Shown piece after piece: positions 10,825 to 11,426 of a DNA stretch of 62,274 bases; position 1 is the stretch's first letter; each line of letters begins with the position of its first letter. Made by a program: the position numbers and the translations under genes. The notes under the pieces are model-generated. The model was not told the origin of the DNA. It saw only the letters and a program-made list of their open reading frames with translations, and made no database searches. The stretch comes from Stx2-converting phage Stx2a_F723, in the sequence record AP012533. One strand, written 5' to 3'.

Positions 10825-10851
10825 TAAAAAATCGCCCTCACATTGGAGGGC
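10825..10851 (-). terminator. Rho-independent terminator downstream of the 156-aa gene
   Basis: GCCCTC-ACATTG-GAGGGC hairpin followed by T-tract on minus strand. Confidence 0.5.
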
Positions 10852-10955
10852 AAAGAAGATTTCCAATAATCAGAACAAGTCGGCTCCTGTTTAGTTACGA
10901 GCGACATTGCTCCGTGTATTCACTCGTTGGAATGAATACACAGTGCTTATTCGTA

Positions 10956-11426
10956 CTAATAAAATACCCAATTTTCTGTTTCTTGGTTGTGTCCAAAGTT
11001 ATATTCAATATCTGGTGTTGATGTATCAATATTCTTCATACCATCAACAAGAGTTGATACAACAGCCAAATCTTGTTTGATTCTCATTAAATGGTATTTC
11101 TTCCGGCGCAATAAACTTTCAATGGCAAGTTTCTTCGTTGGGAATGCAAAAGATCTTTCTGCATTTTTTGCTACTTTCTTAATTGCATATCTATTTCTCC
11201 TTTGTTTCCATTCCTGTAACCACTGATTTGGTGCTGGTTTAAAATTAACAATCCAATGCGCAGGAACCAACCATGCATAATGCTCTGTCTGATGAAAAGC
11301 TATATATTGAAGTGCGAATATTTTTATCCCATCTTCTTCAACTGTCGCCTGGAATCTCCAGAAAACAGGCATTCCATCATGTTCAGTTTCTGATTCAGGA
11401 AAAGGTACGCTCCATGATTTTGTCAT
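10956..11426 (-). CDS. Hypothetical protein (AT-rich moron in sieB/ral position)
   Basis: 156-aa ORF with no recognised motifs, between N and cIII, followed by its own terminator. Confidence 0.5.
   Translation of the reverse strand: MTKSWSVPFPESETEHDGMPVFWRFQATVEEDGIKIFALQYIAFHQTEHYAWLVPAHWIVNFKPAPNQWLQEWKQRRNRYAIKKVAKNAERSFAFPTKKLAIESLLRRKKYHLMRIKQDLAVVSTLVDGMKNIDTSTPDIEYNFGHNQETENWVFY

Follow-up and report, generated by a model that had tools for sequence, protein, structure and literature searches.

In lambdoid phages the interval between the antiterminator gene N and cIII, within the early left (pL) operon, is variable: lambda carries sieB, orf28 and ral in this position, and P22 carries sieB, ral and 17. 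The P22 sieB gene has its own mapped promoter and is oriented against pL. A moron, as defined for HK97, is an extra gene with its own promoter and terminator. The subject of this work is a 156-amino-acid (aa) open reading frame (ORF) in the N-to-cIII interval of the Stx2-converting phage Stx2a_F723 (sequence record AP012533; the whole stretch of 62,274 nucleotides (nt) is called the window below). This ORF is L0079 of phage 933W (AAD25424), and a first-pass annotation, made from the sequence alone, had described it as an AT-rich single-gene moron with its own terminator in the sieB/ral position. From our sequence analysis, L0079 is best read as an accessory gene that was swapped into the early left operon, not as a self-contained moron. 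The overall account, that of an early pL-operon accessory gene with an independent small RNA (sRNA) module, PreS, downstream of it, is one we regard as fairly probable.

The PreS sRNA, also named LPR1, was described in 2024 (Silverman et al., bioRxiv 10.1101/2024.10.31.621285); according to this preprint, it is an Hfq-dependent lambda sRNA of ~88 nt that is processed to ~68 nt, with the terminator tL2a as its 3' end. The same source states that PreS is made in the lytic cycle, that it raises dnaN translation and phage DNA replication, as shown for lambda only, and that it is conserved in lambdoid phages. Taking the ends of LPR1 from the authors' primers P810, P1103 and P1104, we found that positions 10912-10825 of the window span exactly 88 nt and are identical to lambda at 87/88 positions, the single difference lying in the terminator loop at 10843. 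This length agrees with the ~88-nt band and with tL2a as reported there. Neither the seed region (~10863-10877) nor the M1 triplet, CTG in CTTGTTCTGATTATTGG, differs from that of lambda, and the module is placed, as in lambda, in the pL operon upstream of ea10 and cIII. The terminator proposed by the first-pass annotation at 10825-10851 does exist, with a GC-rich stem at 10834-10851 and a T6 run at 10826-10831 in the terminator scan, and the start coordinate of the proposed unit, 10825, is the PreS 3' end. Its assignment to the gene as an 'own terminator' does not hold, given that hairpin and terminator make up a conserved module matching lambda LPR1/PreS with tL2a. Alignment showed that near-perfect identity to lambda begins ~10 nt 3' of the L0079 stop codon and runs into ea10, and the lambda equivalent of this sequence lies after ral.

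The same module follows different genes in other phages, namely ral in lambda, gp34 in Sf6, gp45 in HK97 and gp53 in ES18, and the genes in front of it in Sf6, ES18 and Sakai Sp5 are unrelated to L0079; in HK97 it is joined directly to cIII and ea10 is absent. As a module near-identical to lambda PreS and found behind different genes, it identifies the terminator of the first-pass annotation as that of PreS, not of L0079. By these alignments, the two downstream hairpins belong to the conserved PreS module and not to L0079. The HK97 record had likewise assigned the tL2a terminator to gene 45. The locus thus shares with lambda PreS its seed, its terminator and a pL-operon location ahead of ea10; it differs in that PreS follows L0079 rather than ral and carries one loop substitution. 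The Sf6 record (AF547987) annotates this conserved non-coding module as 'bsq4; boundary sequence' and 'tL2A', that is, as a mosaic boundary between exchangeable genes; this annotation concerns a recombination joint only, the sRNA function having been described later. On our reading the conserved PreS module, beyond encoding the sRNA, acts as a recombination boundary for the exchange of accessory genes. Searching Rfam gave no PreS family, and the sole nearby match was the cIII thermoregulator. In the Salmonella phages ES18 (L023 1200-1312) and UPF_BP1 (L024 538-700) a diverged PreS was observed, with ~83% identity in the 5' half. Its seed, GACTCGTTCTGGTTAAT, is similar, it contains an insertion, and the terminator stem differs in sequence. 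UPF_BP1 combines an E. coli-type hairpin with this Salmonella-type PreS body.

The inverted repeat that the first-pass annotation had placed at about 10913-10942 was confirmed at 10912-10943, where 14 base pairs enclose a loop of 4 nt. It has a folding energy of -23.9 kcal/mol (z = -5.7), which none of 200 shuffled sequences equalled in stability, and the final paired position of the hairpin is also where PreS begins. When the 37 nt upstream of PreS were compared in ES18 (hairpin at L023 1170-1200) and in the IMG/VR contigs that share the PreS 5' sequence (loci L029-L148), four classes were obtained whose stems are mutually unrelated, with 28-34% identity to that of 933W. A hairpin of 9-14 bp is formed in every one of them, its end lying 0-2 nt ahead of GAGCAAT, and hardly any shuffled sequence is as stable. 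At least four such classes exist, and the motif GAATAAGC(A/G)C is often seen 5' of the hairpin. Because structure is kept here without conservation of sequence, the hairpin can be regarded as a functional part of the sRNA locus; this four-class conservation was not seen in the parts of the PreS preprint consulted (bioRxiv 10.1101/2024.10.31.621285). The hairpin probably defines or protects the site at which PreS is processed, or lends stability to the 3' end of the mRNA upstream. Here PreS in effect constitutes the 3' untranslated region (UTR) of L0079, from which it would be released with the aid of the hairpin.

In the surrounding region of the window lies the early left operon, here that of a lambdoid Stx phage. 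The gene order on the minus strand is pL-like promoter, nutL, N, the 156-aa ORF, the two-hairpin non-coding stretch, ea10, cIII, kil, gam, bet and exo (Table 1), so that the ORF between N and cIII reported earlier is present, with ea10 and then cIII on its downstream side. Positions 10800-11480 are 100% identical to 933W and to many other Stx phages. HK97 gp45 (AAF31125), in the same place after N, is 99.4% identical to L0079, and the phi24B counterpart is vb_24B_11c; all three carry the label 'hypothetical protein', and literature searches on L0079, vb_24B_11c, HK97 gp45 and lambdoid anti-defence returned nothing on the protein. The AT-richness of the ORF was borne out, with a guanine-cytosine (GC) content of 35.7% and a third-position GC content (GC3) of 26.8%, whereas the window has 49.3% GC and the genes N, gam, bet and exo lie at 49-52%. 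Its base composition hence deviates from that of neighbouring genes, as is characteristic of morons.

The description as a moron is not supported by the transcription signals. A consensus scan of the minus strand between 11427 and pL detected no sigma-70-like site, although weak, activator-dependent or non-consensus promoters would escape such a scan, and the pL-like site, located between the tM terminator annotated in 933W and nutL, is the sole promoter-like site 5' of N and L0079 on that strand. The ORF has the same orientation as pL and starts 58 nt beyond N, and the spacer holds no promoter-like or intrinsic-terminator-like site, its weak hairpin (z = -0.7) having no T run. From pL to tL2a no intrinsic-terminator-like site was detected except a weak, T-poor match inside N, in a scan that is blind to Rho-dependent terminators. 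Given that L0079 has no detected promoter of its own, that N lies 58 nt upstream in the same direction and that no intrinsic terminator was seen between them, pL most likely drives L0079 along with N from the first moments of infection or induction; L0079 would probably be co-transcribed with N before antitermination is needed. As no intrinsic terminator was seen between pL and tL2a, PreS too could be made before N acts. Compared with an HK97-type moron, L0079 is similarly an extra gene absent from related phages, with deviant composition and a terminator downstream, but it has no detected promoter and the terminator is part of the shared backbone.

An autonomous, prophage-expressed moron with its own promoter and terminator, acting in SieB-like superinfection exclusion, would account for the AT-rich, foreign composition, which is shared with stk and L0083 of the immunity region, for the location in the interval where lambda and P22 carry sieB, and for the downstream terminator that the HK97 record gave to gene 45. 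We nevertheless consider it very unlikely, given the lack of a promoter-like site upstream of L0079, its orientation with pL where P22 sieB runs against pL from a mapped promoter, and the occurrence of the terminator, as part of the conserved PreS module, behind other genes elsewhere. Moreover, L0079 has no membrane segment (maximum Kyte-Doolittle 19-mer of 0.56), and its relatives occur in virulent phages, where lysogenic conversion would be meaningless, which argues against a moron in general. L0079 is thus probably not a prophage-expressed exclusion protein.

The sieB/ral position assigned by the first-pass annotation is correct, and what occupies it varies widely. We examined 83 IMG/VR viral contigs with PreS and enough flanking sequence, scoring the last gene before the hairpin. 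Ral was found in 21, L0079 in 13, a protein like Sf6 gp34 in five and one like Sp5 ECs_1180 in two; the remaining contigs held no fewer than 12 further unrelated families, one of them a pentapeptide-repeat protein. Sf6 gp34 was considered as a relative of L0079 and rejected, being an unrelated protein in the same slot. Lambda, Sakai Sp5, Sf6 and ES18 all have other genes in place of L0079, which is itself found with four N types and with or without ea10 downstream. The slot looks like an accessory or counter-defence hotspot, and we take L0079 to be a mobile accessory gene in this hypervariable part of the pL operon. In the 1.5 kb upstream of the PreS match in IMG/VR loci L029-L148, the slot immediately before PreS is filled by ORFs of 16 or more unrelated families. 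Among them are a 227-aa pentapeptide-repeat protein, families of 207 aa and 293 aa, and a 107-aa protein that is acidic. The other classic Stx2 phage is Sp5, a prophage of E. coli O157 Sakai; here (L018 3721-3972) the N type differs and the slot holds the unrelated 83-aa gene ECs_1180 instead of L0079, with the same ea10 behind it.

Like lambda ral and P22 gene 17, which are counter-defence genes of the early pL operon, L0079 is a small, pL-sense accessory gene of the N-to-cIII interval that would be expressed early, and the possibility that it is a restriction-alleviation or other anti-restriction protein replacing Ral deserves consideration. Its position as second gene of the pL operon, in the interval where lambda carries ral, its earliest possible expression, which would fit anti-restriction, and the presence of Ral in the slot of about a quarter of the PreS-bearing contigs are all in line with such a role. 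In phi367, however, N is followed by two small ORFs and then by ral, L0079 and PreS, so that L0079 lies directly downstream of ral, and the paper from which phi367 comes reports Ral in phi296 too, which also carries L0079. The two genes are therefore not alternatives. In a BLASTP comparison of the slot ORFs with lambda Ral (66 aa), L0079 and other references, L0079-type proteins matched L0079 and not Ral (E <= 1e-5), and neither lambda Ral nor P22 gp17 has BLASTP similarity to L0079. In addition, L0079 is basic and not an acidic DNA mimic. Replacement of Ral is accordingly judged unlikely, and the notion of L0079 as a stand-in for ral or sieB, to which the lack of a membrane segment is also relevant, was not upheld.

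It could be asked whether the ORF is a functional gene at all, rather than a chance frame in an AT-rich spacer or in a PreS precursor. The ORF bears no motif or annotation, as the first-pass annotation had also remarked: neither the single protein nor a 50-sequence profile gave anything but noise in searches of Pfam, NCBIfam, PADLOC and PDB sequences. In lambda, furthermore, PreS functions without L0079. On the other hand, L0079 has a good Shine-Dalgarno sequence and matches phrog_1636 over its full length (residues 1-156 of 156, E = 2.7e-112), a family matched by all 50 members of the L0079 alignment; all matches in the PHROGs search were to families without assigned function. Twenty homologues with 55-85% identity share 40 invariant columns, and 87 remote relatives were found among 1.8 billion representatives. 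Together with a confident AlphaFold model, these results indicate that L0079 is a real gene; conservation has already refuted the chance-frame reading, whose probability we put at practically nil.

Homologues of L0079 were found in several genera of the Enterobacterales, namely Pectobacterium, Brenneria, Cronobacter and Rosenbergiella. The Cronobacter homologue is located between N and cIII, and those of Pectobacterium and Brenneria are the last gene before xis-int. All three have another short terminator downstream, not PreS, indicating that L0079 and PreS are not an obligate pair. Apparent L0079 fusions (P0066 and P0080) were dismissed as repeat artefacts, and a further candidate, P0051, merely has an added Cys-rich N-terminus.

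Structure prediction used a 50-sequence alignment that included remote relatives. The resulting model is a single domain, with a predicted local distance difference test (pLDDT) score of 95.7 and a predicted template modelling (pTM) score of 0.81, built of three long beta strands (19-30, 33-46 and 50-55), short helices, a short strand (83-86) and a 33-residue helix (98-130). L0079 has an isoelectric point (pI) of 9.1, and values of 8.4-9.7 were calculated for most relatives. It is predicted to be a compact, soluble, mildly basic alpha/beta protein. The follow-up suggested by the first-pass annotation, remote homology and structure prediction, thus yielded relatives and a confident model; the model has no solved structural relative, and the predicted fold is phage-specific. 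Residues R24, G33, E/Q46-T47, K87, R91/92, A101 and K109 are conserved family-wide, with conserved basic positions on a beta strand and the long helix.

These conserved basic residues would suit an accessory DNA-binding replication or recombination protein, or a transcription regulator of an early operon, with no role in defence. Relatives of L0079 occur in virulent as well as temperate phages, where they belong to early clusters or to clusters of DNA-metabolism genes. One relative, with 63% identity, heads an operon with ParB-like and RusA-like genes in phages of the Bas81/NX263 group, and remote relatives lie beside RecE, after a recombinase-like AAA_24 gene with DUF3799, and beside a cytosine methyltransferase. 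Against such a role, no similarity of L0079 to any known DNA-binding fold was detectable, and neighbourhood is weak evidence in early regions. Lambda and Sp5 manage without L0079, which must hence be dispensable for core functions. We regard a purely DNA-binding role as possible, though on balance doubtful.

As to what L0079 does, a defence or anti-defence function, as raised by the first-pass annotation, is possible on grounds of position only. With low confidence, we suggest that early in infection L0079 may bind either nucleic acid or a factor of the host; its role might lie in counter-defence or host takeover, or it might be an accessory protein of DNA metabolism. Either role is tentatively favoured over prophage-expressed exclusion or Ral-like alleviation. 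A bolder and rather improbable version would make L0079/gp45 the first studied member of a phage-specific fold, expressed immediate-early, co-transcribed with N ahead of any terminator and serving counter-defence or host takeover by an undescribed mechanism, with the hairpin as an element dedicated to processing or stability that couples the slot gene, whichever it is, to sRNA biogenesis.

Table 1. Features of the early left operon around L0079 (window positions)
Feature	Position	Strand	Basis
pL-like promoter TTGATA-17-CATTAT	12118..12146	(-)	promoter scan
nutL	12034..12100	(-)	933W annotation (record 9614-9680, offset +2420), mapped via 100% identical match
Antiterminator N, 127 aa, 933W/H-19B/HK97 type	11485..11868	(-)	Pfam N_peptide 2e-15, phrog_271, 933W annotation
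N-L0079 spacer, 58 nt, Shine-Dalgarno GAGGTGA at 11430-11436	11427..11484	(-)	
L0079, 156 aa, ATG start	10956..11426	(-)	phrog_1636
14-bp hairpin abutting PreS 5' end	10912..10943	(-)	folding and shuffles
PreS (LPR1) sRNA, 88 nt	10825..10912	(-)	lambda alignment; ends from published primers
Intrinsic terminator tL2a, PreS 3' stem-loop and U tail	10826..10851	(-)	terminator scan; name from PreS paper and Sf6 record
ea10 (DUF2528), next pL-operon gene	10437..10805	(-)	Pfam DUF2528 1.5e-46; 933W annotation

Several observations were made on neighbouring parts of the window. The coordinates of kil and cIII (10067-10436, minus strand) disagree between records, the kil of 933W being 270 nt long and spanning all of cIII and that of Sakai 144 nt; the 270-nt call looks like an annotation artefact. 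The Rfam family Lambda_thermo, the cIII thermoregulator, matches the 5' region of cIII at 10319-10377 on the minus strand (88.5 bits, E = 1e-21). Just 5' of cIII there is a second terminator-like hairpin, AACGCTTCACTCGAGGCGTT followed by a T run (10394-10413, minus strand), presumably another member of the lambda tL2 terminator cluster. In HK97 the AACGCTTCACTCGAGGCGTT hairpin sequence lies directly 3' of PreS, and a Cronobacter prophage has a similar sequence in front of cIII. Between cI and pL, an AT-rich block (12337-14434, minus strand, GC ~35%) comprises L0084, L0083, stk, which encodes a eukaryote-like kinase, and L0081, and terminates at a bidirectional GC-rich terminator at 12337-12358 (tM in 933W). 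These four genes are read with cI and so suit the description of lysogen-expressed cargo better than L0079 does.

The locus itself is already known, its sequence being identical to that of a phage annotated in 1999 and the sRNA having been described in 2024, and the present findings do not overturn the current understanding of it. What is new is the re-assignment of the supposed 'own terminator' to PreS, the four-class conservation of a hairpin at the PreS 5' edge, the count of slot occupants and a confident model of L0079 without a solved structural relative. The locus is situated in the medically important Stx2 phage 933W. Since in lambda PreS boosts both host dnaN and the replication of phage DNA, an effect on the replication of Stx phages and on toxin gene dosage after induction is conceivable; and since the hypervariable early slot also holds Ral, L0079 is a reasonable, if unproven, candidate for a counter-defence screen.
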